From Chloroflexota bacterium (lineage in GTDB: Bacteria > Chloroflexota > UBA11872), in contig OZ253558.1 in NCBI GenBank assembly GCA_965262745.1, positions 2,015,618 to 2,079,617 of the forward strand: a stretch of 64,000 nt of DNA, read 5' to 3'. The position numbers and the translations under genes are program-made. Positions 1 through 52,821 of this stretch are shown piece after piece (within the stretch, counting starts at the first letter, position 1; each line of letters begins with the position of its first letter). The notes under the pieces were generated by a model. That model did not search any database. It was not told where the DNA came from and worked only from the letters and a program-made list of their open reading frames with translations.

Positions 1-193
1 GGCCGGCTGGCCTCCGCCCGCTCCGCCAAATCTTCGCGCTTCGACGCCCGACCCCCGGGACGCATGCTCACAGCGGCCGAACCACAAGCACCTATTCCTC
101 AGGCCGAGAGACCTACCGACGCACGCACTCGGTTACCCGCCACGCCGCATGCGGTCACCTCAGGCAACCGCCCGTGGCAAAGCTCGTTCTGCA

Positions 194-2449
194 TCAGTCT
201 TCGACCATTCGATCCTCAAGCAGCCCGAGGTTCAGATCGAAATAGTAGTCCAATATATACCGGAAATGATTGACGGAGCTGATAGACGCATATAAACCGT
301 CGCTCGCACCGTCTGGCAAATGGAACGCCGCCACAATACGATGCCGCGCGACCCCCTTTACAATATGACCGTGGTCAGCAGCTATAACAATGACAGGGTC
401 ATTGTTATAGCTGTTCAAGATCCCATCAACCATACTCAACACCAACGAATTTATATAGATAAGTTGCCCAATGAATGCGTTAGGGACGCTGGGGTCATGA
501 CGATCATTAAATGCTAGTTTTGGTTGATCTGGAGTAATATAGTTCCCATGTTGATCGAATGCTGCTGGCAAATGGGGCTTGTTTATGTGTGCAAACACAA
601 ACTTTGCCTGATCCTCCTCAACAGCGCTGGTTAGAAACTCAAACATCTTAAGCGTTCTCTGCGGATAATGAAACCCATACGGAGTGTTTATATCAAACAG
701 CAAATAGTGTCCAGCTATTGGTTTGAGAACTGTCGTTTGAATGAGTTCCCGAACGAAACTCCCCATAAATATCATATCGTGCATCGCCGTATATGGACCT
801 GTGCCTTCTTCCGTGACTTTACTGGCTATAGTGCCTGCCGGTGTAAACGAAATCAAGGTGTCAGCAAGAGGAGATTGGTCAGTGGCAATGAATCCCGAAT
901 CAAGATGTACGTACTTATATCCTAGGCGCTTTAGAATTGCACCGACGGCATGATATTGGGAAATATTGACGAGGACATCTCTCGTTACTGACGTTCGTTG
1001 TCCAAGGCCGTCGAGATACGACATGTTTAGGCTCGATGATATCGACTTGAGTGACGAATCATAGTTGCTGAATGCCTCAGATGCTACGTAGAAACCGCGA
1101 CGCTCGAGCTCACGTAGAAAGCTCGTGTTGTCGTAGTCGCCAAGTGCATCGTGTCGCGAGTACGAATCGAGGATGATGTAGTAGATGTCCGGCTGGTCGC
1201 CGACTACTGTCGGGAGACCCGCTGGCAGCAATCGGTCCACGACATCGTCCACCGCCGCGGTTTGATCCGTTGGCGGGCGGGCAAACGACGCCGCCATTCC
1301 GCCGACAAGGCTTGCGACGGGAAAGGCAAGCAAGACGGCGGCTGTGAGATTGAGGAACTGCGTCGCGCGAGCGGTCGACGCACCGGCTCGTATGGCCATG
1401 ACGGCCGCCGCGGCGCCGAGTACCATCACACCTGCGATGAGCGCTCGTTCGTCCAAATGTCCGTTGAGCACGCGCTCGATGTGGCCATACGCAAAAAAGA
1501 CCACGGTGACGGCGGCCGTGGCCGCGGCCGGCCGGTGCCAATCCTTGAGACCAACTCGCAGGCTAACGACGCTGCCAGTTACCGCGACCAGCGCGATTCC
1601 AAGCGGCACGACGGCCTCGATGGGCGCGAAATGCAGCGAGTTGCTCGTGAGGAAATGCAGGATCGGGATCGCCACGACGGGCCAGGGGTACCAGGGGATC
1701 GCCAGGGCACGCCCAATCATCGTCGGTGAGGCGTGGGCGTCCGCCGCAGCGCCAGACTCGACGCGACGCTGGCCCCAAGTGGCTGGCCAACGAGCCACGC
1801 GACGCCCGGAGGCTCCCGCTCGTTGCAGCGCTGCCGTCGCGCGGGGATGCGCAAGGATTGCCAACACGCTGAATGCGACGGCCAAGCCGAGCCGAAGACG
1901 CTCGGACGGTGCGCCAGCAACCGCAGCACGAAGCCCGCTGCCGGTTTCCAGGTGCGCAAAGGCCAGCGGTCCGCTACCGGAATCCGGGACACCATTCAGC
2001 ATCAGATTGGAGATTCCGGGCTGAGGGCCAGCGAGTCGATAAATCACGTGGGACCGTTCGGATGGGTGCACTTGGAGCTGCAGCAGCAACCGCTGGCCCT
2101 TCGGCACGACATAGCTGGTGAAGATGAGCGTGCGGGGCACGGGGATATACCCCGCCCTGGCGTCGATGTACGTCTGTCGCAGCACCTCGCGGGTGGACGC
2201 GTCAACCAGCGAGGCCCACACAGTCACGTCATCACGCTCGGTCTCGGACGAAACCCAGATCCTGAAGCGGCCCAGCGTCCCGCTCACGGGCCCGAGGTCT
2301 TGCTGCACGCCCCACCCGGGCCAGGCGATGAGCACATCGCCCGCGGGCTCGCCGCTTGAGGCCGACGTAAAGGTGACCTGGGGAAGAAGACTCGCCCACA
2401 GGCCTAGCGCCGCCAGCACAAAGGCCAGCCAGAGCGACCTAGCGAGCAC
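194..2449 (-). CDS. LtaS/sulfatase-family (alkaline-phosphatase superfamily) polyglycerol-phosphate-transferase-like protein, with a ~180-aa N-terminal extracytoplasmic domain ahead of the TM block
   Basis: 751-aa ORF. Central hydrophobic helices are followed by the sulfatase-domain motifs DIYYIILDSYSRHDALGDYDNTSF and VIVIAADHGH. The N-terminal signal-like MLARSLWLAFVLAALGLWA and ~70% protein identity to the 7781..10081 paralog support this start. Confidence 0.8.
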   Translation of the reverse strand: MLARSLWLAFVLAALGLWASLLPQVTFTSASSGEPAGDVLIAWPGWGVQQDLGPVSGTLGRFRIWVSSETERDDVTVWASLVDASTREVLRQTYIDARAGYIPVPRTLIFTSYVVPKGQRLLLQLQVHPSERSHVIYRLAGPQPGISNLMLNGVPDSGSGPLAFAHLETGSGLRAAVAGAPSERLRLGLAVAFSVLAILAHPRATAALQRAGASGRRVARWPATWGQRRVESGAAADAHASPTMIGRALAIPWYPWPVVAIPILHFLTSNSLHFAPIEAVVPLGIALVAVTGSVVSLRVGLKDWHRPAAATAAVTVVFFAYGHIERVLNGHLDERALIAGVMVLGAAAAVMAIRAGASTARATQFLNLTAAVLLAFPVASLVGGMAASFARPPTDQTAAVDDVVDRLLPAGLPTVVGDQPDIYYIILDSYSRHDALGDYDNTSFLRELERRGFYVASEAFSNYDSSLKSISSSLNMSYLDGLGQRTSVTRDVLVNISQYHAVGAILKRLGYKYVHLDSGFIATDQSPLADTLISFTPAGTIASKVTEEGTGPYTAMHDMIFMGSFVRELIQTTVLKPIAGHYLLFDINTPYGFHYPQRTLKMFEFLTSAVEEDQAKFVFAHINKPHLPAAFDQHGNYITPDQPKLAFNDRHDPSVPNAFIGQLIYINSLVLSMVDGILNSYNNDPVIVIAADHGHIVKGVARHRIVAAFHLPDGASDGLYASISSVNHFRYILDYYFDLNLGLLEDRMVED

Positions 2450-2800
2450 AGATCACCAGAAACCGCCGTGAAGCATGGAAAGCTCGATCTGCCGGGGCGG
2501 GGCGGACACGACAGGAGCAAGGCAGACCACCGGAGGTGCTGGTCTGGCACCCCTGGCGAGCGTCGTCCACAGTGGATTGGCAATGCAGGCCATTTGAGTC
2601 CACGACTATAGGGGCGAGCCATGCCCGCGAACGCCCAGCAGCCTCATACGCCGACCTCGAATAGCTCGGTTGACGGCCTGGCCATTGTGGTTCTTGGCCT
2701 TCAGCCCGCGCGGTTGATCTCCGCCCAAGTAGCCGGCCGCAGCTACATCGATCCCGGCAGCGGGAGCTTTGCGATCTTTCTAGATCATCATCGCGGCCAA
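194..2800. repeat. Diverged segmental duplication, copy A (LtaS-like gene plus ~350 bp upstream with small divergent ORF); partner at 7781..10430
   Basis: By-eye nucleotide and protein alignment to the second copy: e.g. ccagccagagcgacctagcgagca is conserved at both gene starts, and cggcagcgggagctttgcgatc is conserved at 2750-2776 and 10385-10411. Homology ends at ~2800 and ~10430. Confidence 0.6.
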
Positions 2801-2866
2801 TTCGGGCGTGAGCGACCCACAGCGTGCAGGTTAGCCCTGAGGCGCCAAGGCGGTCGAGCGCCGTGA
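2621..2866 (+). pseudogene. Decayed copy of the small membrane-protein gene (homolog of 10289..10558); TM helix and downstream coupling lost
   Basis: N-terminal 55 aa (GLAIVVLGLQPARLISAQVAGRSYIDPGSGSFAI) align with the intact copy (GLAILLLGLQAARLISAQLGGRSYIDPGSGSFAI). A 6-nt indel (tttcta at 2777-2782) is followed by unrelated sequence FLDHHRGQFG where the intact copy has the TM segment QIIIAAVLGG. Confidence 0.35.
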
Positions 2867-2961
2867 TGGCCGAAGGAGGTGCCCGACAGTTGCGCGCGTG
2901 GACTAATGCCGCAACCTTAGGTGTATTGCCAGATCTCGGAAACTGGGCCGGCCAGGCAATG

Positions 2962-3038
2962 GCCCGTGTAGCACAATGGGCAGAGGAGCGGTCTTGTAAA
3001 CCGTTAGGTGCTGGGTTCGGGTCCCACGCAGGGCTCCC
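2962..3038 (+). tRNA. Degenerate tRNA-Thr(UGU)-like relic (probable pseudo-tRNA)
   Basis: GCCCGTGTAGCACAATGGGCAGAGGAGCGGTCTTGTAAACCGTTAGGTGCTGGGTTCGGGTCCCACGCAGGGCT aligns along the canonical bacterial tRNA-Thr skeleton. The anticodon stem GCGGT/ACCGT is intact with loop CUUGUAA (anticodon TGT at 2995-2997), and there is a T-arm TGGG-TTCGGGT-CCCA. Only 4 of 7 acceptor pairs and 2 of 4 D-stem pairs form. Confidence 0.35.
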
Positions 3039-3065
3039 GTGCCCTAAAGTTGCGGGCGTATCTGA

Positions 3066-5861
3066 ATGCACATTGATCCGTCCGTAGTTCCAGGGCTGTT
3101 GCTGCTGGCGACGGAACTCCTCGTGCTGGCGGTGGTCGGTTTTGTCGTTGTGCGTGTGGCGCTTGGGCAAACCGACGACCGCCTGGCCCTGGCGCAGGGC
3201 CTGGTGGTCGGAATTGCTCTCTGGGGCCTGATCGTCAACGTTGTCGTTTACGCCATCCCAGGGCCGACCGGGGCCGTTCTAGGTTGGATCCTCACGCTTA
3301 CCATCGGCGCTGGTCTAGTATGGTATGCGCCCCATCCCATCCGGCCGCGGCTGCGCGTTGCAGTGGGGCTTTCGCTCGCGGCTCTGGCGCTGTTTTGGAT
3401 CGTGCTGGCGAGCCGCCAGCTCCTCCCAAACCCGGACGCGGCGACTCATCACGGGCTAATTGCCACCATCCGCGCTGGCGGGCCCCACCCGCCGGAGTTG
3501 CCCTGGAATCCCGGACTGGCCGCGCCCTACCACTATGGGGTTGATTTGTTGATTGCCCTGCTCACTCCACCGGTCGGCCCCGATCCGGCCTTCGTGACCG
3601 AGCTATTGGGCACATACATCTGGGTGGGCTACGCGCTTGTCGTGGGGACGCTGATTCTCCGGCAAGGATCGTGGCCGGTGGCGCTGATTCTTACGCCGCT
3701 CCTGCTTGCGCCCGGTGCGCAAACGCTGCTCTTCACGTCACCGGGTGTCCTCCAGATCCCGGTCCAGGCGGACCTTCCCGCACCCGGTCTGCGCGCCTCA
3801 CTTGCATCTATCTACGTGGAGGGCTTCGTGGAAAGCAAGGCGTCGCCCCCAGATGTTTGGAAGCCGGTCTTCGTGTTGGGCTACGCGCTGGCCTTGGTGG
3901 TGTTGGAGCGAGTTTCAAACCGCAGGGAACAGCGCTGGCTGCACTGGGGCACGCTGGCACTACTGGTCGGTTTTCTGGGTCTGATAAACGAGGCAGTTGC
4001 TCTCGTCGTGCTCACGCTGTGGGGACTTCTCGAGGCAATCTACTTCGTGCGAGCTTGGGGCGAGCGGCCGCTTGGCTGGAAACGGATGCTCGGGTCCGCC
4101 GCGGGGCCGGCCGTTGCCGCGTCCCTTCTGGCCGCCGGCGGTGGCGTCATCACGAGTATCCTAATTGCGGGGTCAGCAGGAACCCTCTCCCTTGGCTGGG
4201 TCCACGATGCGGGCGCACGGCAAGCGCTCGTGTCCTTCACCGGGCTGTCCGGCGGCCTCGGCCTGCTGGGTCTGGGACCTCTCGTCCTGGCCGGCGGCGC
4301 CATGCTGCTGGCATGGCGCAATAGCCTCAGCCTGGCATTCGCCGCTGGCAGCGGCGCGTTCCTGCTCGCCGCGCACACGCTGCAGTATCCATACGGTCAG
4401 CATGATATTACGAGACTAGATGGACACGCGCGCAACTTTGCGCTGCTGGCGTTGCTGCTCGCGCTGAGCTTGCGGCTCCCGGCCCTGCGGCCCCGCTGGC
4501 GCTACGCCGTCGCCGCCATGATCCTGGCCCTAGTGGTCTGGCCGGCCATCGTTTCGCCTGTGCGAACTCTTGGCCTGGCGGTCGGCCGCGGGATTCACCT
4601 CGCCAACGCCGAGCCAGATCAACCAGGGCGTCGGCAAGTGTTCAAGCAGTTAACGTCCGCGCGTGTCGCCGCTTATATCCGCGACTCCACGCCAGCCGAC
4701 GCACGAGTCCTCTCGCCCAATCCGATGGCCATGTCAGTCGCCACCGGCCGTCCCAACGCGGCGGGCTTCACACAAGCGCCACACTACATCTATTCCCACG
4801 GGCCCGAGTACCTCGACGCCATCCGCTATCTTGACCCTGCCGCCGTGCGGCGACTGGGCATAGCCTACGTGCACGCCACCGACGCTTGGATTGCCGGTCT
4901 GCCTGATCGAGCCCAGCGCTGGCTCAATGATCCACGGCTGTTCCAACGTCTGGTCCAGGACGGGCCCGACGCGCTCTTCCGAGTGCGGCCGGCGTACCTT
5001 GCGCTTGAGGCTGCGCCGGAGCCCGAGTCCTACGAGGCCCTGAGGAGGGCCGTACCGCCGTCCGCCAGGGTGTACATGGAGCCCACGGCCGAGGCGCTGC
5101 AATCTCTCCGCGTTGCGTCTGCGCTTGCGCACGCGCAGCTCGTTCGCAAGCTACGCCCCGGCCACTTGCATTTGCTGACCGACTTCGGGATCGAGCCGCT
5201 CGGCGCTGACCTTCCGACGCTCATTGTTGCGCCTCACTGGTTCACACCATCCATGTTCCCGCTTGCGGCGCGGCAGCCAGTTTGGTGGAACGATTTGATA
5301 GCCATCTATGCGCCGGACGGTACGGTTGATCCGATCATGCCCCGCACGCCTGCGGCATCGCCGCCACTCAGCGTGCGGGTGTCCGACGGGCATGTGGTAG
5401 ACGAGAGCGTTATCTTCACCATAACGCTCACTGACCACGCGCCGGGGAGCTGGACCGGCCAGGATTGGCTAGTCGTGCCGACGGACGCGATGCCGTGGGG
5501 TATTCCGCGCCATCCCAGTTTCGGCGGACCTTCCGCCGATCGGTGGTTCGGCGGCCAAATCGCCTCCGGGCAGAACACCACACGCCTGACGTACGAATTC
5601 GGCTTGCGCGAGGCCAGCTTGGCTGTCCGGGCTGATGACGGGAAGTTCACGGCCGTTGGCGGCTCCGGCAATACTCCGCTTGGTCCCGGGCGGTGGACGC
5701 TCGTGCTGCGCCTGACCCGCGCAGTGGATCGACGCACCTACATAGCGTATGAGGACGCCGCGTTCATTCCAGTCATGCATACCGAGTTATCGGAGGCTGG
5801 CGAGCTGTCGCAAACGGTCTATGAGGGCGATCTCAATGCGAAACTGAGGTCTCATCCGTAG
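3066..5861 (+). CDS. Large polytopic membrane protein (~14 TM) with ~350-aa C-terminal extracytoplasmic domain; putative GT-C-like glycosyltransferase or polymerase
   Basis: 931-aa ORF with many hydrophobic helices rich in Leu/Ala/Gly (e.g. LLLLATELLVLAVVGFVVV, ALLALLLALSL). The C-terminal 350 aa is hydrophilic. Amino-acid composition is protein-like rather than R/P/S-rich. No catalytic motif recognised. Confidence 0.55.
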   Translation: MHIDPSVVPGLLLLATELLVLAVVGFVVVRVALGQTDDRLALAQGLVVGIALWGLIVNVVVYAIPGPTGAVLGWILTLTIGAGLVWYAPHPIRPRLRVAVGLSLAALALFWIVLASRQLLPNPDAATHHGLIATIRAGGPHPPELPWNPGLAAPYHYGVDLLIALLTPPVGPDPAFVTELLGTYIWVGYALVVGTLILRQGSWPVALILTPLLLAPGAQTLLFTSPGVLQIPVQADLPAPGLRASLASIYVEGFVESKASPPDVWKPVFVLGYALALVVLERVSNRREQRWLHWGTLALLVGFLGLINEAVALVVLTLWGLLEAIYFVRAWGERPLGWKRMLGSAAGPAVAASLLAAGGGVITSILIAGSAGTLSLGWVHDAGARQALVSFTGLSGGLGLLGLGPLVLAGGAMLLAWRNSLSLAFAAGSGAFLLAAHTLQYPYGQHDITRLDGHARNFALLALLLALSLRLPALRPRWRYAVAAMILALVVWPAIVSPVRTLGLAVGRGIHLANAEPDQPGRRQVFKQLTSARVAAYIRDSTPADARVLSPNPMAMSVATGRPNAAGFTQAPHYIYSHGPEYLDAIRYLDPAAVRRLGIAYVHATDAWIAGLPDRAQRWLNDPRLFQRLVQDGPDALFRVRPAYLALEAAPEPESYEALRRAVPPSARVYMEPTAEALQSLRVASALAHAQLVRKLRPGHLHLLTDFGIEPLGADLPTLIVAPHWFTPSMFPLAARQPVWWNDLIAIYAPDGTVDPIMPRTPAASPPLSVRVSDGHVVDESVIFTITLTDHAPGSWTGQDWLVVPTDAMPWGIPRHPSFGGPSADRWFGGQIASGQNTTRLTYEFGLREASLAVRADDGKFTAVGGSGNTPLGPGRWTLVLRLTRAVDRRTYIAYEDAAFIPVMHTELSEAGELSQTVYEGDLNAKLRSHP

Positions 5862-7248
5862 CCTCCGCACCGGAAAAGCTGGCCGAGCGAATGTCGGACG
5901 CCCGCCGGTTAACTGGCGACGGACGCGACAGTGCGGTTGCCAACAGCAAGGCCGGGCAAAGGACAATTACCGTCAGGGTGATAGCAAGGTCTGTCGCCAG
6001 CACCGGCCAACGCCAGTCGGAGGTGAGAGTTCGCCAGACTGCACGAAGCTTGCTGAGCGTCGGCTCTGGTCTACCGTAGGCCACCAACTCAAGGTTTTGA
6101 TCGGGCCAGGTCAGCTTGCCGTTTACCCAGAGACGGCCCTCCGCGTAGCGGTTCGTCTTCGTCGCGCCAATACGGATATGGGCATCAGGTGCGACATCAG
6201 CGACAAACTGTATCGCGAGGCTCTGACCCGGCGGAACGACGACCGGCTGCTTGAAGTCGAGGGAGACCCAAATCAAGTGATCCCTCCTGGTAGGAACCGT
6301 AAAGCGCCCTTCGCGCAGAATCTCGCGTGACTCGCCGGCCAGAAGGTGCCAGCTGACTACTCCCGAACGACCATTGGGATCATGCATGCCGAGCCGGACA
6401 TCGATCTTCTCGATTGGCACCGTGAGCAGACCCAACTCCTGCATCGCGGATCTCTCGTCTTGGAGATGAACATGAAAAGCACCGACGGAAGAGTGTGCGC
6501 GGGTATCCACGAAAGGGGGTCGGAAGACAGCCATGACCACGAGCCCACCGAGTACGGTCACGGTGGCGATCGATCCAGCGAGCGTCGTGCGCCAGTGGCC
6601 ACCGAACGCGCGAGCTACTCGTGATGAGGCAGGCTCGCCCCGTAGCGCGATGACTGCGCTGAGGACGAGCAGCAGCGTACCGCTGAACTCTAGGGTCTCT
6701 TCCAGCACGACGTCGCGCCCGGGCGCTAGCCTAGCGAACAGGATCGGGGCCGCCACCTCATGCAGCACGGCCAACACCCAGGCCGTGAAGCCAAGCGCAA
6801 ACGGCATGCGCACCGCCTGCCTGCGCAGTCCCTTGCGGACAAAGACCGCCGCCGCAAGCGCGGCTGCCAGGGTCGCCATTCCCGTACTTGCAACCAAGAG
6901 AATGGCTTCGTCAACCGGCACTGCGTCTCTGAACATCAGCCGACTCAAGGCGGCTTGGGCACCGCTGTGTTGGTCCCCGAATTCGCTCCATGCCAGCATT
7001 GCCGCCGTCACGGCCAGGGCGGTCCAGCCACCGATCGTCAGCCATCCAGCAGCCTGCCTTCGACTGTTGAAGGCATTGGTCAGCGCCAAGAGTGCGAGGA
7101 CTGCCAGGGCCGCCCCGGAAACTGCGTTCGCCAAACTGCCTTCAGAATCGGAACTCATATGGCTTGCGATGCCGCTCGGGACGCGCACCTCAGGGAAGAT
7201 CAGCCTCAAAAGTTCTGGGATTACGTAGCCGCCCCACCAGAAGGCCAC
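5833..7248 (-). CDS. Membrane protein with C-terminal copy of the recurrent ~110-aa domain shared with the LtaS-like N-termini
   Basis: 471-aa ORF with N-terminal TM helices. The C-terminal segment VVSWHLLAGESREILREGRF...GQSLAIQFVADV...AHIRI...WVNGKL aligns with VTVWASLVDASTREVLRQTYI...GQRLLLQLQVHPS...HVIYRL...MLNGVP of the LtaS-like proteins. Confidence 0.5.
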   Translation of the reverse strand: MAFWWGGYVIPELLRLIFPEVRVPSGIASHMSSDSEGSLANAVSGAALAVLALLALTNAFNSRRQAAGWLTIGGWTALAVTAAMLAWSEFGDQHSGAQAALSRLMFRDAVPVDEAILLVASTGMATLAAALAAAVFVRKGLRRQAVRMPFALGFTAWVLAVLHEVAAPILFARLAPGRDVVLEETLEFSGTLLLVLSAVIALRGEPASSRVARAFGGHWRTTLAGSIATVTVLGGLVVMAVFRPPFVDTRAHSSVGAFHVHLQDERSAMQELGLLTVPIEKIDVRLGMHDPNGRSGVVSWHLLAGESREILREGRFTVPTRRDHLIWVSLDFKQPVVVPPGQSLAIQFVADVAPDAHIRIGATKTNRYAEGRLWVNGKLTWPDQNLELVAYGRPEPTLSKLRAVWRTLTSDWRWPVLATDLAITLTVIVLCPALLLATALSRPSPVNRRASDIRSASFSGAEATDETSVSH

Positions 7249-7374
7249 CGCAACCAGAAGTAGCAGGCGGCCGGCACATGCCGCCTGGCTACAGAAATCT
7301 TTCAGCAGTCCCGACCGCTTTCAACTGTGTTCTGAGAGCTGGCTCGATGCTACCAACGATGGGGCAGGGGCCAG

Positions 7375-7460
7375 GTCGAGGTGGTGAAACTGGCAGACAC
7401 GCAGTCCTCAGGAGGCTGTGAGCAACCGCTCGTGCGGGTTCGAATCCCGCCCTCGGCACC
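7375..7460 (+). tRNA. tRNA-Leu(CAG), class II with long variable arm
   Basis: GTCGAGG-TG-GTGAAACTGGCAGACAC-G-CAGTC-CTCAGGA-GGCTG, variable hairpin GAGCAACCGCTC, T-arm GCGGG-TTCGAAT-CCCGC, acceptor 3' CCTCGGC, discriminator A, then CC. Fits the cloverleaf and closely matches the E. coli tRNA-Leu architecture. Anticodon CAG. Confidence 0.9.
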
Positions 7461-7780
7461 GCGATCTGGAAGCCGCCCACGCGATGGCACGGCCCAGCAA
7501 CGCGTCCGCCGGCGTGTGCCGGATTTCCCCTTAGTCCAGTTCACCTCAGTGGTCGATCCTACCAATAGCATTCTTGCCGCACCGGCCAGCTAGTCTCCAC
7601 CGGCTGCGTCAAATCTTGGCCCTCTCGCCCACCGCCCCAGACGCATCATCACAGTGAGCGAACTACTGGCGTCTGCGACGAGCACGCGTTCATCGACCCT
7701 TCCGTCCACCGCGCGCTCGACGGGCTGTCAAGGGCGGGGCCCGCAGGACCAACGACACAACGACCGATGCGTATCCACGG

Positions 7781-10081
7781 CTATTCACGGCTTTCTGAGG
7801 TCACCTCGTGAAAATCGAGATTGAATCCGTGGTGTACGAACCTCCGGTCTTTGAGCAAACCCAGGTTAAGGCCGAAATAGAAATCAATGATGGATCGAAA
7901 CTGATTGACGGAGCTGATCGACGGATAAAGAACGCGATCCCCACCATGCGGCAAGTGAAAGGCCGCTAAGATCGCATGCGGCGTCCCCCAGCCATCGAGG
8001 CGACGGCCGTGATCGGCGGTGATCACGATGACGGGGTCGTCGTCATGGATCTGTAGGATCGCATCAACCATTTCTAGAACTCGCGAATTGATATAGATGA
8101 GCTGGCCAATATATGGGCTGGGCACGCTCGGATCGTGATCTTCGCCGAATGCGTCATGGACATTGATACCAGGGACAGCGTTGCCGTGTCGATCGAAGGT
8201 GGCAGGAGGGTGCGGCTTGACGATGTGTGCAAACACAAATTTTGGCCCAGCAACATCGATAGGCTTGGTTAGAAAGTCGAACATCTGAAGGGTCCGCTTT
8301 GGATGCCACCACGCATAGATCGCATCGCTGCCGGGTGCTAAATTATGTCCAAGGAAAGGTCGCAATGCGGTTGTTTGTATAAGCTCGCGTACGAATCTTC
8401 CGGCGAGGATCGATTCGAGCGATCTGGCTGATCTATATCCAGACTTCTCGTCACCTATTAGTACCCCCGATTGGGAAAAATTAACCACGACATCGGCTAG
8501 CGGTGATGCGTCGGTGATCGTGTGTCCAGACGTGAGGTGGACATAGGTGTAGCCGAGTTTCTTCAGGATGGATGCGACGGCATGCTGCTGACCGAGCGGT
8601 ATTACATCCTCGTACCTCGATGGCGTTCTCGGCCCCACGCTGTCGAGATACGACATGTTGAGAAGTGACGCGATTGAATGCTGCGACCACATATAGTTGC
8701 TGGTGGCCTCAGTTGCAATATAGAAACCTCGACGTTCGAGCTCGCGAAGGAAGCTCGTGTTATCGAAATCTACAAGAGCATCGTGCCGAGCATATTCATC
8801 GAGGATGATGTAGTAAATGTCAGGTCGATGATCGCTTGTCGACGGCGGGATCGACGGAAACAGGTGCGTTGTGAGGTCGTCCAGCGCCGCGATCGAGGCT
8901 GACGACGTTCGCCCAGACGAGGCCGCCGCGGCGCTTGCGAGACTAGCTACAGGAAAGGCCAGAAGCACTGCTGCCACGAGGTTGAAGAACGGCGTTTGTC
9001 GCGCAGGCGTGGCATTGGCGCGCACGGCCGCAGCGATAACCACGGCCAGGAAAACGATCGCGGCGGGAAACAGCACACGTTCATCGATCCGCCGGTCGAG
9101 CGCGTTCTCAACGTGGCCATAGGCAAAGACGACCACGGTGATGGCGGTCGTGGCGGCGGCGGATCGGTGCCAGTTCTTGAGGACCAACCAAAAGCCGACG
9201 AAGCTGCCGGTCACGCCGACAAGCGTGACTGCGAGCGGAAATATTGCCTCGCCGGCGGCAAACAGCAGGCGATTACTCGTCAAAAAATGGAGTATGGGAG
9301 CAGCGGCGATCGGCCACGGATACCAGGGGGTCGCGAGCACCCGGCCGAACAGCGTTGGGGATTCGCCGACCTCCCCCTCGGCGTGAGGCCGGACGAGACG
9401 CCGCCTCGACGTCGCTGGCAGCCGAGCGAGGCGCCATCCGGCGGTTCCCATTCGACGCAGCCCTGGCATGACGCGAGGATGCGCCAGGATCGACAGCACG
9501 CTGAACATAACGGCTAGGGCGAACCGGAGACTCCCGGATGGATCACCGAGCCATGCGGCGCGCAGCCCGCTGCCGGTTTCCAGGTGCGCGAATGCCAGCG
9601 GCCCCGCGCCGGAATCCGGGACGCCGTTCAGCATCACGTTGGCGAACCCCGGCTCAGGGGCGGCGAGTCGATAGATGACCGTGTACCGTTCGGGCAGTTG
9701 CACAAGAAGCTGCAACAGCAACCGCTGACCCGCTGGCACGACATAACTGGGAAACGTGAGGGTGCGCGCCACGGGGATATAGCTCGGCGTGGCCTCGATG
9801 AAGGTCTGGCGCAGCACCTCGCGAGTGGAGGCGTCCACCAACGAGGCCTGCACTGTCACGTCGTGTCCAGCAGGCGCGGATGAAAGCCAGATCTGAAAGC
9901 GCCCGACCGTTCCGTTCAGGTGTCCGAGATCTTGCTGCACCCCCCACCCGGGCCAGGCGACCAGCACATCACCCCCGGGCTCGCCGCTTGAGGCCGACGT
10001 ATACGTGACCTGGGGAACGAGACTCGCCCACAGGCCCAGCGCCACTAGTGCGAGAGCCAGCCAGAGCGACCTAGCGAGCAT
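7781..10081 (-). CDS. LtaS/sulfatase-family protein, paralog of 194..2449, same N-terminal domain + TM + sulfatase architecture
   Basis: 766-aa ORF with DIYYIILDEYARHDALVDFDNTSF and VIVITADHG motifs. N-terminus MLARSLWLALALVALGLWA is conserved with the paralog. Confidence 0.8.
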   Translation of the reverse strand: MLARSLWLALALVALGLWASLVPQVTYTSASSGEPGGDVLVAWPGWGVQQDLGHLNGTVGRFQIWLSSAPAGHDVTVQASLVDASTREVLRQTFIEATPSYIPVARTLTFPSYVVPAGQRLLLQLLVQLPERYTVIYRLAAPEPGFANVMLNGVPDSGAGPLAFAHLETGSGLRAAWLGDPSGSLRFALAVMFSVLSILAHPRVMPGLRRMGTAGWRLARLPATSRRRLVRPHAEGEVGESPTLFGRVLATPWYPWPIAAAPILHFLTSNRLLFAAGEAIFPLAVTLVGVTGSFVGFWLVLKNWHRSAAATTAITVVVFAYGHVENALDRRIDERVLFPAAIVFLAVVIAAAVRANATPARQTPFFNLVAAVLLAFPVASLASAAAASSGRTSSASIAALDDLTTHLFPSIPPSTSDHRPDIYYIILDEYARHDALVDFDNTSFLRELERRGFYIATEATSNYMWSQHSIASLLNMSYLDSVGPRTPSRYEDVIPLGQQHAVASILKKLGYTYVHLTSGHTITDASPLADVVVNFSQSGVLIGDEKSGYRSARSLESILAGRFVRELIQTTALRPFLGHNLAPGSDAIYAWWHPKRTLQMFDFLTKPIDVAGPKFVFAHIVKPHPPATFDRHGNAVPGINVHDAFGEDHDPSVPSPYIGQLIYINSRVLEMVDAILQIHDDDPVIVITADHGRRLDGWGTPHAILAAFHLPHGGDRVLYPSISSVNQFRSIIDFYFGLNLGLLKDRRFVHHGFNLDFHEVTSESRE

Positions 10082-10430
10082 CAGTCACCAGCAAGGGCCG
10101 GAAGCCATGGAAACCTCGATGTGGCAGTGGTGGGGCGCGCCGGACCGGATTACAGGGCCGGCGACCGGAAGTGCTGGTCTTGCGCCCGTGGGGAACGTCG
10201 TCCACAGTGTGTCGGCGATGAAGGCCATTTGAGCCCACGATGATAGCGGCGAGCCACGAACGTGACCGGTGAGGAGGCTCGAGCGCCGATGCCGAATAGA
10301 TCAGGTGGAGGCTTGGCCATTTTGCTTCTTGGTCTTCAGGCTGCGCGGCTGATCTCCGCCCAGTTGGGCGGCCGCAGCTATATCGATCCCGGCAGCGGGA
10401 GCTTTGCGATCCAGATCATCATTGCGGCTG
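7781..10430. repeat. Diverged segmental duplication, copy B (partner of 194..2800)
   Basis: See copy A. The gene, its 5' region and the start of the divergent small ORF are conserved. Confidence 0.6.
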
Positions 10431-10558
10431 TACTGGGCGGGCTGCTCTCGGCGCGGCTCTGGTTCCGGTACGTGTTGGGACGGATCATCGGGCTGGTGCG
10501 CCGGTCAACCCCCGCGGAGAATCCCTCGGCTGAGGAGGCCAACCGCGAGGACGGATGA
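10289..10558 (+). CDS. Small (≈89 aa) two-helix membrane protein, intact copy of the duplicated divergent small ORF, translationally coupled to the next gene
   Basis: Start chosen at the ATG conserved with copy A (MP.N...), with GAGGAGG 11 nt upstream. The ORF-track version starts at GTG 10262. Hydrophobic segments are GLAILLLGLQAARLI and AIQIIIAAVLGGLLSARLWF. The stop overlaps the next start (ATGA at 10555-10558). Confidence 0.5.
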   Translation: MPNRSGGGLAILLLGLQAARLISAQLGGRSYIDPGSGSFAIQIIIAAVLGGLLSARLWFRYVLGRIIGLVRRSTPAENPSAEEANREDG

Positions 10559-11946
10559 TCGCCGACCCTGACGCGCGCCTGCCGAGTTCGTTCCGCGACC
10601 CGGCGGGCTTCGTCTTCCAGCGCGACGGCACGATCTTCCGCCAAGTCAACCGGTCCTACGAGGCAACCTTTGCCACCCTGATGGATTCGGGGCTTTACGC
10701 CCGTCTCGTCGAGGACGGCCTCCTCATCCCTCACGAGACCGTCGAGTTGGGCCTCGCCCCCGCGCCCGATGCCGCGGCCGTCATCCGGCCCGCACAACTC
10801 AAGTTCGTTTCCTATCCCTTCGAGTGGTCGTTCGCGCAGCTCAAGGCCGCCGCCCTGGCAACCTTGCATGTGCAGCGGCGGGCGTTGGACTACGGCCTGT
10901 CGCTCAAGGACGCCAGCGCACGCAACATCCAACTGCATGAGGGACGTCCCAGGCTCATCGACACCTTGTCGTTCGAGCGTTACGAGCCGGGCTTTCCGTG
11001 GGTGGGCTATCGCCAGTTTTGCCAGCACTTCCTGGCGCCGCTGGCGGTCATGGCCTACACCGATGTCCGCTTGGGCACGCTACTGCAGAGCCATTTGGAC
11101 GGCGTCCCGCTCGACCTCGCGTCGCGGCTGCTCCCCTGGCGCTCGCGCCTCCGGCCCGGTCTGCTGATGCATCTGCACCTCCACAGCCGCGCTCAGGCGC
11201 GTGCCGCCACATCGACCCGGAAGCGTGCCGACCTGGCCGGCCGCATGAGCCGGCGACGACTTGACGCCTTGCTGGAGAGCCTTGAATCGGCGATAGGCCG
11301 GATTGCCTGGAACGCAGACCGCACGCCATGGGCCGGCTACGGCGACCAGACGAGCTATACGAGCAGTGCTCTGGCCGACAAGAAGCGATTGGTGGCCGAG
11401 CACCTATCCATGGTCTCGCCCGAATCCGTGTGGGACATCGGCGGCAACACGGGCGACTTCAGCCGGATCGCCGCGGCGGGCAGCATCCCGGTGGTCTCGA
11501 TCGACAGCGATCCGGGAGCGATCGATCTGAACTATCGCCGCATGGCGGCAGACGGCGAGCGAAACCTCTTCCCCATCGTGGCCGACGTCACCAGCCCCAG
11601 TCCCGCGCTGGGATGGGACAACGATGAGGTCGCCTCGCTCACGTCGCGGGGGCCGGCCGGGCTGGTGATGGCGCTGGCCCTGATCCATCATCTCGCGATT
11701 GGCAACAACACCGGATTCGACCGCCTGGCGCAGTTCTTTGCGGCGCGCGCACCAATGCTCCTCATCGAGTTCGTCCCGCCCGACGATCCAATGGTCGTGC
11801 GTCTGCTGGCGATGCGGAATCACGCGTTTCCCTGGTACACGCAGCGCGAATTCGAATCGGTGTTCAGCCAGTACTTCCACATCCAGCGGTCGGACGCGAT
11901 CACGGACTCGAACCGCCGGCTCTATCTGATGACGACGGGCAGCTAG
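10555..11946 (+). CDS. Two-domain protein with a C-terminal class-I SAM-dependent methyltransferase fold and an uncharacterised ~260-aa N-terminal domain
   Basis: 463-aa ORF. Motif I of a Rossmann MTase is VWDIGGNTGDFSRIAA, followed by an acidic loop (SIDSDPGAID) and motif-II-like FPIVADVTSP. The N-terminal half has no motif I recognise. Confidence 0.65.
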   Translation: MIADPDARLPSSFRDPAGFVFQRDGTIFRQVNRSYEATFATLMDSGLYARLVEDGLLIPHETVELGLAPAPDAAAVIRPAQLKFVSYPFEWSFAQLKAAALATLHVQRRALDYGLSLKDASARNIQLHEGRPRLIDTLSFERYEPGFPWVGYRQFCQHFLAPLAVMAYTDVRLGTLLQSHLDGVPLDLASRLLPWRSRLRPGLLMHLHLHSRAQARAATSTRKRADLAGRMSRRRLDALLESLESAIGRIAWNADRTPWAGYGDQTSYTSSALADKKRLVAEHLSMVSPESVWDIGGNTGDFSRIAAAGSIPVVSIDSDPGAIDLNYRRMAADGERNLFPIVADVTSPSPALGWDNDEVASLTSRGPAGLVMALALIHHLAIGNNTGFDRLAQFFAARAPMLLIEFVPPDDPMVVRLLAMRNHAFPWYTQREFESVFSQYFHIQRSDAITDSNRRLYLMTTGS

Positions 11947-11950
11947 ACCG

Positions 11951-13291
11951 GTGGCGCGACGATGTGGCGACTCACCGGCCCCCGCAACCCACCTCGGGAA
12001 CCACGAGCGCTGGGCGGTGGTGGCAATCATTGTGTTCGCGACACTCAGCGCGCTGTTGTGGGCGCTCATACGGATTCCGGACGGCGGCGGACCCGACGAG
12101 GCCAGCCACCTGGCCCTGATCGAACGCATTCGCGATGCGGGCGGAATCCCGCAATTCCAGGGGTTTGAGCCCAGTAAGTTCGTTGGGAAACCGGGGCGAG
12201 TCATCAACGCCTTTGAGCTGACGCCAAATATTTCGGCGCTGGCGCTGGCGGGTTTCGCCAGCGCAGCCCACCTAAGCGACCCGCTAGCGACGCTGCTGCT
12301 CGGCAGACTCTACGCCGTCAGCCTCTTTCCAGTGACGCTGCTGCTCGCCTACCTCACACTGCGCCTTCTGATTCCCACGCGGCCCGTGGAACGCGTGTGG
12401 GCGCTCACGGCCCTCGCTACCCTTCCCCAACTCATGCTGGTCCACAGCTACGTGACCAACGACACCCCAAGCATCGCGGCCGCGTCACTGGCGATCTTTC
12501 TGACCGTGCGCGGATGGACGAACGGGTTTCGACGGCGGGACGCAGCGCTGCTGGGCGTCGCGTTGGGTTTGGTTGGCCTGCACAAAGCGAACGGGCTGGT
12601 CATTGTCCCCATGGCGGGCGCCCTGATCGCCTGGCGGCTGCGGCACGACCTGCCCCAGTTAGCCCGAACTCTCGGCACTGTCGCCGTTCCGGCGCTGGCC
12701 GTGGCCGGTTGGTGGTATGTGCGCATGCTCGTCGTCTACGGCGACCCGATAGGTACGGGGACCACCAAGGCAGCGATCGAGGCCGTGGGAACGGCGGTTG
12801 CAACGCCCCATGACCAGGGACTGAGTCCGTGGGAATACGCCCATGTATCGGGATGGGTCGAGGGCGCGTTCCGGTCGTTTTGGGCCGGCTACGGCGTGCG
12901 CAAGATGACCATGCCAGACGCGGCCTACCTGGCCATGCTGGCGCTGCTGGTCGTCGGCGCGGGCGGGCTGGCCGCCAGCGCCTGGCGTACGCGCGGGCGC
13001 GCTGCAAATGATGGCGCGGTTTGGATAGCGTTCGGGCTGGTCGTCACAGGGCTGTGGGGCCTGAATCTCTGGACGAGCTGGACGCTCGACGGCGCCGCCA
13101 TGCATGGGCGATATACGTTTCCCGTGATTGTTCCCTTCGTGGCATTGCTCGCCGCCGGGCTCGGGCGCGCCCTTGCCGTTACGGGCCGTTCCCAATTCAT
13201 GTTGGCGCTGCTGGTCCCGCTCATGGTTGCGGGAAACCTGGCCTATTTCGTCCATGTCGTTATCCCGGACGTGGTGGCGCTTCGTGCTTGA
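11951..13291 (+). CDS. GT-C superfamily membrane glycosyltransferase (PMT/ArnT-like, GT39/83-type) with DE motif in first extracytoplasmic loop
   Basis: 446-aa polytopic ORF. DGGGPDEASHLALIERI lies right after TM1, which is the canonical position of the catalytic DE/DD motif of GT-C lipid-linked-sugar transferases. There are ≥10 further hydrophobic helices. Confidence 0.6.
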   Translation: MARRCGDSPAPATHLGNHERWAVVAIIVFATLSALLWALIRIPDGGGPDEASHLALIERIRDAGGIPQFQGFEPSKFVGKPGRVINAFELTPNISALALAGFASAAHLSDPLATLLLGRLYAVSLFPVTLLLAYLTLRLLIPTRPVERVWALTALATLPQLMLVHSYVTNDTPSIAAASLAIFLTVRGWTNGFRRRDAALLGVALGLVGLHKANGLVIVPMAGALIAWRLRHDLPQLARTLGTVAVPALAVAGWWYVRMLVVYGDPIGTGTTKAAIEAVGTAVATPHDQGLSPWEYAHVSGWVEGAFRSFWAGYGVRKMTMPDAAYLAMLALLVVGAGGLAASAWRTRGRAANDGAVWIAFGLVVTGLWGLNLWTSWTLDGAAMHGRYTFPVIVPFVALLAAGLGRALAVTGRSQFMLALLVPLMVAGNLAYFVHVVIPDVVALRA

Positions 13292-14126
13292 CCGCCTGAG
13301 GCAAGGGCGCGCTGCTCAGCTTGCAGGCGAGGTCTCCGTCATTCTGCTCGCGCTCAGCTGGATCATTTTTCTGCTAGTGCACCCCGTCCACATCCCCGTG
13401 CTATCACCGTCCCAGGAAGTTGAGCCCTACAACGCGCAATCCCTGACCGGCGTGCAGGGACAGACGTTTGTGGCACCGACCAGTAGGCTGAGCCGGATCG
13501 ACCTGGAACTCGACACGCGCATTCCGCCCGGCGAGTGGGTGCACGTGACATTTGAGCTCGCTCGCGGAGTACAGCCCCGTACGACGCTTGCCTCAGCGAT
13601 CGCGATCTTCGACCGTTCCCGCAAAGGCTGGCCCGTCCGCCTGTACCTCGATCCCGTCCTGACCGCGGCTGGCGACCGCCTTTATTTGCGTCTTGAGTCG
13701 GTCGTGAGCTCGCCCCGCGCGGAGGTGTTCTACCGCTACAGCCGCCAAGATTTTTACCCGCAGGGCGCCTATCTCGACCTGGATAAGTTGCGCCCGACCG
13801 ATCTGGACCTGCTCTTGACCGTCTATCGCGCTCCGCGCGTTCCCAAGCCGCTGGCGTGGATTGAAGCGTTCACCGCTCGCGCAGGTCATGCGGCCCAACT
13901 GGCCGCCCTGGCACCGGCGTGGGTGGTGACGCTGCTGAGCGTGCTCGCGCTCGCGTCCGTCCTCATCGCATTCACCGCTGGCGCCCACCTGCTGATTCGT
14001 GTCTCGACGTGGCGTTCAACAGCGCTTACGACCCCGGCGATCATTGCGCTGCTTTGCGCAGCCGCGCTTGCGCTGCTGGCTTGGGGCGAGATTCCAATCG
14101 GAAAGCTAGTTCTGGACCTCACCTGA
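13284..14126 (+). CDS. Membrane-anchored protein carrying the recurrent ~110-aa extracytoplasmic domain (N-terminal TM, domain, C-terminal TM pair)
   Basis: In-frame GTG at 13284 overlaps the upstream stop. The M-start at 13128 in the ORF track would overlap the GT-C by 160 nt. The domain segment QTFVAPTSRLSRIDLELD...VHVTFELARGVQPRTTLASAIAIFD...GDRLYLRLESVVSSPRAEVFYRY aligns with the LtaS-like N-terminal domain. Confidence 0.45.
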   Translation: MLDRLRQGRAAQLAGEVSVILLALSWIIFLLVHPVHIPVLSPSQEVEPYNAQSLTGVQGQTFVAPTSRLSRIDLELDTRIPPGEWVHVTFELARGVQPRTTLASAIAIFDRSRKGWPVRLYLDPVLTAAGDRLYLRLESVVSSPRAEVFYRYSRQDFYPQGAYLDLDKLRPTDLDLLLTVYRAPRVPKPLAWIEAFTARAGHAAQLAALAPAWVVTLLSVLALASVLIAFTAGAHLLIRVSTWRSTALTTPAIIALLCAAALALLAWGEIPIGKLVLDLT

Positions 14127-14148
14127 CCAGACGCGCCCGCTCCGATCC

Positions 14149-19830: not shown

Positions 19831-19835
19831 ACATC

Positions 19836-52818: not shown

Positions 52819-52821
52819 GGT

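Follow-up and report, generated by a model that had tools for sequence, protein, structure and literature searches.

Beta-sandwich accessory domains are a well-known general theme among enzymes that act on glycans. CBMs are normally soluble appendages of secreted enzymes, and the C-terminal domain of Wzt recognizes the polymer. Lipid-linked donors serve both GT-C enzymes and the membrane-anchored sulfatase-fold transferases (LtaS/EptA type); LtaS, EptA/MCR-1 and OpgB combine about five transmembrane (TM) segments with an extracellular sulfatase-fold domain, and to our knowledge neither LtaS nor EptA has been described with an N-terminal cassette consisting of a TM segment, a sandwich and another TM segment. 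In mycobacteria, the GT-C arabinosyltransferase EmbC has a lectin-like CBM at its C-terminus that has been proposed to hold the acceptor polymer (PMC3044687), and the phage 812 baseplate contains, according to the paper describing it, ten-stranded sandwiches of the CBM16/61 type that are thought to bind cell-wall glycans.

The window analyzed here, a stretch of 64,000 nucleotides from the genome of a Chloroflexota bacterium, encodes four proteins (A, D, C and G) that, by profile comparison, have in common one domain of approximately 135-150 residues. Homology of the copies, a beta-sandwich fold and the grafting of the domain onto different proteins are, taken jointly, very probable. The relevant features are the following:

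194..2449, minus strand: gene A, an ORF of 751 aa, 60% identical to D over its full length
1916..2377, minus strand: predicted beta-sandwich of A, residues 25-178 (HHalign versus the C domain 96.2%, P 2.7e-9; merged profile P 1.1e-28)
5833..7248, minus strand: gene C, 471 aa, a polytopic membrane protein with no curated annotation
6064..6516, minus strand: predicted beta-sandwich of C, residues ~245-395 (strands 257-392; AF2, domain pLDDT ~95)
7781..10081, minus strand: gene D, 766 aa, paralogous to A and built on the same architecture
9548..10009, minus strand: predicted beta-sandwich of D, residues 25-178 (merged profile P 5e-29; 75% identical to the A domain)
11951..13291, plus strand: gene F, 446 aa, a PMT-type GT-C glycosyltransferase (PF02366 23.5 bits, cut-off 22.7)
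13254..14126, plus strand: gene G, 290 aa if translation starts at the ATG at 13254 and 280 aa if it starts at the GTG at 13284
13392..13838, plus strand: predicted beta-sandwich of G, residues ~37-185 in the 280-aa numbering (merged A+C profile 90.7%, P 1.2e-6)

The initial annotation had placed a single domain in both LtaS-like paralogs (A and D), in the 471-aa protein C and in the protein encoded by 13284..14126 (G), and HHalign comparisons of family profiles agree with it. The A and C families aligned over 137-138 columns with a probability of 95.8-96.2% (P 7e-9 to 2.7e-9), C and G with P 1e-3 to 2e-4, and A and G with P 0.0035; when the A and C profiles were merged, the match to G extended over 136 columns, and the reciprocal comparison gave 81% (P 1.2e-5). 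The observed scores (57-60 for A-C, 44.5 for A+C versus G, 28 for C-G) exceed those of 100 column shuffles per comparison that preserved composition, which were 13-14 +/- 2.5 with a maximum of 22.3. In pairwise BLASTP of single sequences of seven cluster proteins, A-D alone was significant (A-C, E 0.45); judged by the BLAST check that the initial annotation suggested, the homology would have been dismissed wrongly, so profiles were needed. The merged profile matched only A, D, C and G among the 91 ORFs of at least 200 aa in the window, and in HMM rankings of 5,490 ORFs the best non-self matches of each family were the other domain families, in register. It also recovered, at E 1e-9 to 1e-14, three extra proteins that were absent from profile building and have the same TM-sandwich-TM layout. 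From the profiles, the A, D, C and G copies are judged to be homologous.

The copies in the window are only 17-23% identical to one another (A/D versus C versus G). The one residue kept across all three families is a Gln in strand 2; Trp, Tyr, Asp, Gln, Asn and Arg residues are conserved in each of them, and the remaining conserved patches are specific to each family. The anchor motifs picked out by the initial annotation correspond to aligning columns of the profiles (Q-x-L/F, R-I-D/R, RE-x-LR and GQ/D-x-L-x-L). The flanking TM segments of A, C and G have no mutual similarity (P >=0.05); the sandwich is the sole part that these proteins share, and the TM domain of C likewise has no similarity to B (a neighboring 931-aa protein), to F or to the core of A.

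Structure was modeled with AF2 for C (pLDDT 86.4) and G (pLDDT 82.5). In both models a compact all-beta domain of about ten strands lies between transmembrane helices: the sandwich of C is placed between a TM helix at 219-241 and helices at 398-410 and 413-440, and that of G, which accounts for most of this small protein, is preceded by one TM segment and followed by an amphipathic helix and two more. Compared through the sequence alignment, the secondary structure (DSSP) of the two independent models agrees at 84% of positions, as against 31-74% for shifted alignments, and the order of strands is identical; as profiles, the A/D, C and G types match over the whole domain, with matching secondary structure in C and G. 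By the positive-inside rule, with Arg-rich segments on the far side of both flanking helices, the domain is predicted to face outward, in keeping with the extracytoplasmic location proposed for it earlier.

Both models have the beta-sandwich/jelly-roll architecture expected of a CBM, and their Foldseek match lists overlap in phage 812 baseplate chains (9eui_Q, 9euj_G), CBM61 (2xon/2xom), PHR domains and IBDV VP2; further matches are a porphyran-binding CBM and GH43-associated domains. These matches are weak (E 1e-5 to 1e-2, TM-score 0.39 to 0.5), and viral capsid jelly rolls are among them; the CBM label accordingly denotes a resemblance of fold class only. The domain falls outside every Pfam, NCBIfam and PDB-sequence family. 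Pfam and NCBIfam scans of the whole proteins, the 99 members of the C family, the isolated domains and the new members at locus L046 left it uncovered, and Pfam at E up to 10 returned no CBM or other model for eight isolated domains; sequence membership of a described CBM family was rejected on the Pfam results for the whole proteins, the 99 C members and the eight domains. PDB sequences, queried with A itself and with profiles of the A, B and C families, returned nothing for the domain and only weak sulfatase/EptA matches for the catalytic part.

In the predicted layout of A, an N-terminal TM segment or signal anchor is followed by the beta-sandwich, a TM segment, an Arg-rich cytoplasmic linker, about five TM segments and a sulfatase-fold (alkaline-phosphatase superfamily) ectodomain; hydropathy indicates four or five TM segments at residues ~250-390, ahead of the soluble domain. 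The closest relatives of A align only from residue ~250 onward, and relatives without the module start at this TM block. The position of the domain ahead of the TM block had been called atypical, and it is: the module is present in 14 of the 126 closest complete representatives of A/D, and in the 112 that lack it the catalytic domain begins ~230 residues earlier. The addition amounts to ~230 N-terminal residues, comprising a TM segment, the sandwich, a second TM segment and the linker. Only a small subclade has it, within a very large family whose members consist of ~5 TM segments and the catalytic domain, and by this sequence comparison the domain is one that was grafted onto sulfatase-fold enzymes. 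D is missing from two loci (L001 and L002) that are otherwise near-identical.

The description of A and D as LtaS-like holds at the level of the Sulfatase/alkaline-phosphatase superfamily, to which the family is assigned by PF00884 together with metal-binding Asp/Asp-His motifs. PF00884 is matched by 49 of 70 A-family members (best 1.3e-10); D scores E 1.4e-4 and 21.7 bits, under the 25-bit gathering cut-off of Pfam Sulfatase, and A does not match that model. Invariant residues of the family include D421, D428, H621, H626 and D692, with H693 and G694 nearly invariant (DHG motif), and an invariant Asp lies within a conserved PDIYYIILD segment. The closer identification as LtaS was not supported: A has no match among PDB sequences at E up to 0.01, the 70-sequence A-family profile matches only sulfatases and EptA-type proteins (4kav, 5fgn) there, at E >=0.015, with no LtaS among them, and no NCBIfam model matches the A/D enzymes.

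The family of C (99 homologs), which has no match in Pfam or among PDB sequences, is multi-copy in Chloroflexota, occurring at 73 loci in MAGs, often as tandem arrays and adjoining B-type genes; some genomes have at least eight C-type copies. The genes neighboring these loci are enriched for B-type and GT-C-like membrane proteins; beyond C-type, B-type and GT-C-like genes, they are unrelated housekeeping genes. Members of the C family and divergent C-like proteins are multi-copy polytopic membrane proteins whose ectodomain is formed by the sandwich, and the domain, which occurs in many Chloroflexota MAGs, is not specific to this organism. Conservation within the C family peaks in the last third of the sandwich domain, and conserved residues of the family include W374, W381, D383 and Q384. 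G (35 homologs) overlaps the 3' end of F and is always directly downstream of a PMT/PMT_2 gene; the F-G pair is present in six of six loci (L006, L034, L076/77, L078, L079), PF13231 or PF02366 is present in the genes that precede G homologs, and F, which scores above the curated Pfam cut-off for PMT/PMT_2, is a conserved partner that does not itself have the domain. Recurrence of the domain on differing membrane scaffolds in envelope-glycan contexts, as first annotated, stands.

Two further carriers named in the initial annotation were rejected. For the C-terminal region of the 931-aa protein B, a 13-sequence profile reached P 0.3-0.56 against the profiles of A, C and G and against the merged profile. 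The soluble insert of the 758-aa GT-C-like protein, encoded at 50542..52818 beyond the coordinates given in the initial annotation, gave a marginal full-length alignment as a single sequence (P 0.018-0.05), and a 12-sequence profile made from metagenome homologs weakened the match to P 0.06-0.7. Both are beta-rich ectodomains from the same genome and serve as negative controls at P 0.06-0.7.

The closest structural likeness is to sandwiches of the CBM61/CBM16 type (TmCBM61, 2XON/2XOM), which both models match (C to 2xon_L at TMt 0.39, G to 2xom_A at TMt 0.43), and to the phage 812 baseplate (9EUI/9EUJ), of which 9eui_Q and 9euj_G are the first two matches of G and the fourth and ninth of C. 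Like the window domain, these are all-beta, with some ten strands in 130-150 residues. The window domain differs from both in having no sequence relationship to them, no match to a Pfam/CBM model and TM-scores <0.5, and it is tethered by transmembrane helices on both sides whereas CBMs are usually soluble. In having a beta-sandwich, predicted here to be extracytoplasmic, on or beside a membrane-embedded envelope-glycan enzyme, the system resembles EmbC as described (PMC3044687). In EmbC, however, the CBM is soluble and forms the C-terminus of the GT-C enzyme, whereas in the window F, the GT-C protein, lacks the domain, a separate small membrane protein (G) carries it, and other copies are on sulfatase-fold enzymes and an uncharacterized polytopic family. 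The cores of A and D, several predicted TM segments and then a domain with the PF00884 signature, resemble LtaS, EptA/MCR-1 and OpgB; the differences are the absence of significant matches noted above and the N-terminal TM-sandwich-TM cassette, which 112 of the 126 close relatives also lack. A Wzt C-terminal domain (PF14524, Pfam E 7e-12) is encoded in the same window at 55868..57583. It too is a beta-sandwich module, joined to a polysaccharide-pathway component that associates with the membrane, but this Wzt_C domain is cytoplasmic and part of an ABC-transporter ATPase, and the merged domain profile did not place the Wzt protein of the window among its best matches. Seipin and GOLD-domain proteins have a comparable layout (TM, lumenal or external beta-sandwich, membrane-associated helix, TM), but are eukaryotic proteins of lipid droplets or Golgi with near-noise matches and no sequence relationship.

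The explanation proposed here is that A, D, C and G each contain a single copy of an unannotated jelly-roll/CBM-like beta-sandwich of about ten strands that would serve as a membrane-proximal ligand-binding module, a reading that we regard as evenly balanced. The sandwich would hold an acceptor glycan or polymer, or a lipid-linked precursor, at the membrane surface beside the active site of an enzyme, one that is fused to it in A and D and that would be a partner protein in the cases of G (F) and C (the neighboring GT-C-like proteins). Carbohydrate or polymer binding is plausible from the fold class, with weak matches and TM-scores <0.5, and binding of a glycan or acceptor by the domain is put forward tentatively, as somewhat less than evenly balanced. 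That C, B and the sulfatase-fold enzymes may act on a glycan is suggested by gene context. Within the C and G families no segment is more conserved than the domain, which is thus not a variable specificity module, and between A and D it is 75% identical as compared with 60% for the entire proteins; such strong conservation would be just as compatible with catalysis or with contacts to other proteins.

That the resemblance is mere analogy, between unrelated beta-rich ectodomains of a GC-rich genome with a common strand periodicity and composition, is very improbable and already disfavored: identities of 17-23%, insignificant single-sequence BLASTP and the modest direct profile scores for A-G and C-G speak for it, but it does not account for full-length matches in register at P 2.7e-9 (A-C) and 1.2e-6 (A+C versus G), for composition-preserving shuffles that never came near the observed scores, for the failure of two beta-rich controls from the same genome, for the recovery of independent members by the merged profile at E 1e-14, or for the identical strand order of the C and G models. 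Granting homology, the sandwich could be a protein-protein assembly module that docks its carriers to each other or to partner membrane enzymes (G to F, C to B-type proteins) and so builds a complex instead of binding a glycan. The strictly conserved F-G pair with its overlapping genes, the adjacency of C-type genes to B-type or other C-type genes, the concentration of conservation in the domain of C and G, as expected of a fixed interface, and the structural phage and capsid proteins among the best fold matches are consistent with docking; fusion of the domain to the enzyme itself in A and D, which makes a docking partner unneeded, and conserved patches that differ among families make it unlikely.

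Capture of a lipid is considered quite unlikely. The sandwich would in that case bind lipids or lipid carriers at the membrane surface, in the manner of seipin or NPC2, and supply the attached enzyme with polyprenyl-phosphate-linked or glycerolipid donors drawn from the outer leaflet. The succession of TM segment, sandwich, amphipathic helix and TM segment would keep the domain against the membrane, the carriers and partners belong to enzyme types that all use lipid-linked donors, and the G model has weak Foldseek matches to seipin (7rsl_A, E 7e-3) and the GOLD-domain protein TMEM87A; these are, however, near noise (probability 0.25-0.72, TM-score 0.17-0.27), and the better matches are CBM-like. 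The ligand-binding reading may be extended to one in which the TM-tethered sandwich would be a cassette for recognizing acceptors, particular to the lineage of marine Chloroflexota and shuffled onto at least four or five scaffolds (sulfatase-fold transferases, two polytopic families and two stand-alone GT-C-like partners) and amplified to at least eight copies per genome as the organizing principle of a diversifiable surface-polymer system; this extension is doubtful.

The domain constitutes a new family of a familiar kind. Absent from all curated libraries searched, it now has coordinates, a profile and two confident models (C and G), and it would still be useful as a domain of unknown function if it did not bind a ligand. 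The family ties abundant uncharacterized membrane-protein families of uncultured Chloroflexota to envelope-glycan enzymes: G may be an accessory subunit of a minimal PMT-type GT-C enzyme, a subclade of sulfatase-fold transferases may have gained an acceptor-binding cassette, and the arrays of C-type paralogs may be part of the same system. If binding is true, a CBM-like protein tethered to the membrane would provide GT-C enzymes with substrate recognition in trans, and if the cassette has indeed been shuffled among scaffolds, these proteins would be a new class of membrane-anchored readers of glycans or lipid-linked glycans, acting in trans to GT-C enzymes.

Seven credible genes, A to G, are recognized among the ORFs of positions 194-14126, and one protein from outside this region also enters the comparison.

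Genes compared (window positions, strand, product)
A: 194..2449, minus strand, 751-aa sulfatase-fold protein
B: 3066..5861, plus strand, 931-aa membrane protein
C: 5833..7248, minus strand, 471-aa membrane protein
D: 7781..10081, minus strand, 766-aa sulfatase-fold paralog of A
E: 10555..11946, plus strand, 463-aa protein
F: 11951..13291, plus strand, 446-aa PMT-type GT-C glycosyltransferase
G: 13284..14126, plus strand, 280-aa membrane protein (290 aa from an ATG at 13254, the form in public gene calls)
758-aa GT-C-like protein: 50542..52818, minus strand, outside the region

By Pfam, the PMT match of F is barely over the threshold and the Sulfatase match of D is under it; the domain proposed to be shared has no Pfam match, and A-D and G have no NCBIfam match. 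The convergent genes B and C overlap at their 3' ends by 29 nt (5833..5861), identically in the related public locus L001. Between F and G the overlap is 8 nt with the GTG start of G or 38 nt with its ATG start, which suggests translational coupling. E has faint methyltransferase signatures, and in locus L079 a 462-aa ORF without a family match occupies the same position, between D-like and F-like genes.

The initial annotation had read one domain by eye in A, D, C and G, with weaker resemblances in B and the 758-aa protein. Single-protein BLASTP detected only the paralogy of A and D (60% identity over the full length; A versus C, E 0.45), and therefore family profiles were built. C contributed 99 homologs (37-54% identity) and G contributed 35; for the N-terminus of A, a 90%-cluster search gave none but close homologs, often with frameshifts. 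HHalign of the excised domains with these first profiles matched A with C (95.8% probability, P 7e-9, 138 columns), C with G (P 1e-3) and A with G (P 0.045). The observed scores were 57.3 (A-C) and 28.1 (C-G), whereas 100 column shuffles per comparison scored 13.5-13.8 +/- 2.4-2.8 and never went above 22.3; for A-G, nine of the 100 shuffles reached the observed 18.1. An exhaustive search with full-length A added divergent carriers of the module (34-53% identity) to the A profile, which then matched C with 96.2% probability (P 2.7e-9) and G with a P of 0.0035, a level reached in none of 100 shuffles. The A-C match justified merging the two profiles, and the merged profile matched G with 90.7% probability (P 1.2e-6, 136 columns) and, in the reciprocal comparison, 81% (P 1.2e-5), with shuffles at 13.0 +/- 2.2 and a maximum of 18.9.

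In a HMMER comparison of 5,490 ORFs from the window and 75 related loci, the best non-self matches of each family were the other families, in register. Of the 91 ORFs in the window that reach 200 aa, the merged profile matched A, C, D and G only, and it found three proteins of locus L046 that were absent from its building (521 aa, E 1.5e-14; 499 aa, E 3.5e-10; 386 aa, E 1.2e-9), in all of which the domain lies between TM helices. The anchors read by eye are the columns aligned by the profiles. The domains of A, D, C and G are homologous, each a beta-sandwich anchored through TM helices, and they represent a new domain family and a new architecture.

Of the six or seven copies proposed, four are real, and the initial observation is confirmed in part; B and the 758-aa protein fall away. 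Against each of the domain profiles, a 13-sequence profile of B gave P 0.3-0.56. For the 758-aa protein, the insert (residues 95-288) was marginal as a single sequence (P 0.018-0.05) and gave P 0.06-0.7 as a 12-sequence profile from metagenome homologs. Both are beta-rich ectodomains of the same genome and double as negative controls for composition and periodicity. The insert, in which the motif ETAEWAY(D/E)R is conserved, is a distinct domain, likewise unannotated. The gene encoding it belongs to a second envelope-glycan cluster (50542..57583 and 40164..42776) comprising this DUF2079/LA_3751-like membrane protein, a GT1, a GT2 and an ABC-transporter ATPase bearing a Wzt_C domain for glycan recognition (E 7e-12). 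Further upstream is the gene for a YfhO-like protein of 870 aa.

AlphaFold2 models built with family alignments place the strands of C (257-392; pLDDT 86.4, pTM 0.80) between a TM helix at 219-241 and helices at 398-410 and 413-440, and those of G (37-182; pLDDT 82.5, pTM 0.77) between a helix at 2-32 and helices at 190-207 and 212-240. When the DSSP strings of these independent models are paired through the sequence-only HH alignment, they agree at 84% of positions with every strand in register, versus 31-74% for alignments offset by 1-12 residues, so the structural comparison bears out the common domain. Hydrophobic helices flank the sandwich in every carrier, and as read from the sequence, Arg-rich segments lie beyond them (A 206-250; C 204-221 and the C-terminal tail; the N-terminus and 241-248 of G). 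By the positive-inside rule, the sandwich is thus predicted to be extracytoplasmic, and, if the linker of A and D is followed by five TM helices, it would share the side of their sulfatase-fold domain. The TM segments that flank it show no similarity between A, C and G; the unit common to them is the sandwich alone.

A search with full-length A returned 9,486 representatives (E up to 1e-3), so the core family is very large. Among the best 150 of these, the catalytic domain is complete in 126: the N-terminal sandwich is present in 14, with the catalytic domain starting near residue 404 and lengths of 627-801 aa, whereas the 112 that lack it have a catalytic start near residue 174 and a median length of 522 aa. 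Thus, in a small subclade the N-terminus has been extended by about 230 residues, which make up the module, its second TM helix and the linker. The Pfam Sulfatase model matches 49 of 70 members of the A/D family (best 1.3e-10), and Asp and His residues are invariant, including D692, which is followed by the nearly invariant H693-G694 of a DHG motif. The weak PDB matches of the family are to sulfatases and EptA-type proteins, with LtaS absent from them, so the description of A and D as LtaS-like holds at the level of superfamily and architecture and no further. Most public homologs of the A N-terminus (P0001-P0019) are short fragments whose tails are out of frame (P0002 and P0006 among them); these look like frameshift errors of long-read metagenome assemblies and not real short proteins. 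Within 1..10000, A and D lie in sequence of markedly lower G+C content (57-62%, versus 65-72% elsewhere in the window), which hints at a compositionally distinct, possibly acquired segment.

C has no relative in Pfam or among PDB sequences. Within the GTDB species scan its family is confined to Chloroflexota MAGs, where it is amplified to at least eight copies in single genomes and forms tandem arrays. Beside C-type genes, the most frequent neighbours are again of the C type (28 of 182), then of the B type (13) and of a GT-C-like family (5). In a survey of loci L003-L075 (for example, OZ253578.1 and OZ244593.1), tandem triplets of C-type genes occur in L005, L009 and L053; C-type and 930-aa B-type membrane proteins often come in alternation, the latter being themselves tandem in L023 and L064. 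Two more carrier types were found with the merged profile in L046: a tandem pair of divergent C-like polytopic proteins (11687..15008; 499 and 521 aa), both missed by C in phmmer, and a stand-alone TM-sandwich-TM-TM protein (19609..20769) beside a 636-aa B-like membrane protein. In each of the six loci examined, G immediately follows a PMT/PMT_2 gene, and L079 has a contiguous block of D-like, E-like, F-like and G-like genes. The cluster varies between strains, because the near-identical public contigs L001 and L002, with C, B, A and E genes identical to those of the window, lack D, F and G (compared over 7249..10554 and 11947..14148) and include an IS481-family transposase not present in the window; in them, E abuts a BNR-like gene and a 78-aa ORF stands in place of D.

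Identity among the window copies is 17-23%, and one Gln in strand 2 is the sole residue kept in all three families; that their resemblance, with strands in register, is mere analogy is scarcely credible. Foldseek returned only weak PDB matches for the C and G models (E-values 1.5e-5 to about 1e-2, TM-scores up to 0.5 on the target), and the match lists overlap. Targets common to both are phage 812 baseplate chains (9eui_Q, 9euj_G), IBDV VP2, CBM61 (2xon/2xom), the PHR domain 3no8 and a laminin LF domain; Cwp84 is among the matches of G. For the phage 812 tripod protein, sandwiches of the CBM16/61 type with ten strands are described together with a lectin domain like that of Cwp84, and binding to cell-wall glycans is proposed (PMC13433997). 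A role of the sandwich as a protein-assembly interface is unlikely, and a role in binding the lipid carrier is quite improbable.

The domain is strongly constrained and is not a hypervariable specificity element: columns at least 90% conserved make up 42% of the last third of the sandwich in the C family, its most conserved segment, versus 17% of the TM part; the sandwich is also the most conserved region of the G family (36% versus 13-24%), and A and D are 75% identical in the domain versus 60% overall. Residues conserved in the C family include T363, K364, R372, W374, W381, D383 and Q384. By analogy with EmbC, in which a lectin-like CBM on a GT-C enzyme is a precedent (PMC3044687), the sandwich may, tentatively, bind an acceptor polymer or lipid-linked precursor; this binding would take place at the surface of the membrane and serve the enzyme to which the sandwich is fused or with which it is partnered. 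The initial interpretation as a substrate-recognition module is partly supported. In one lineage, this sandwich occurs in combination with different membrane scaffolds, and GT-C and sulfatase-fold enzymes are among its contexts.
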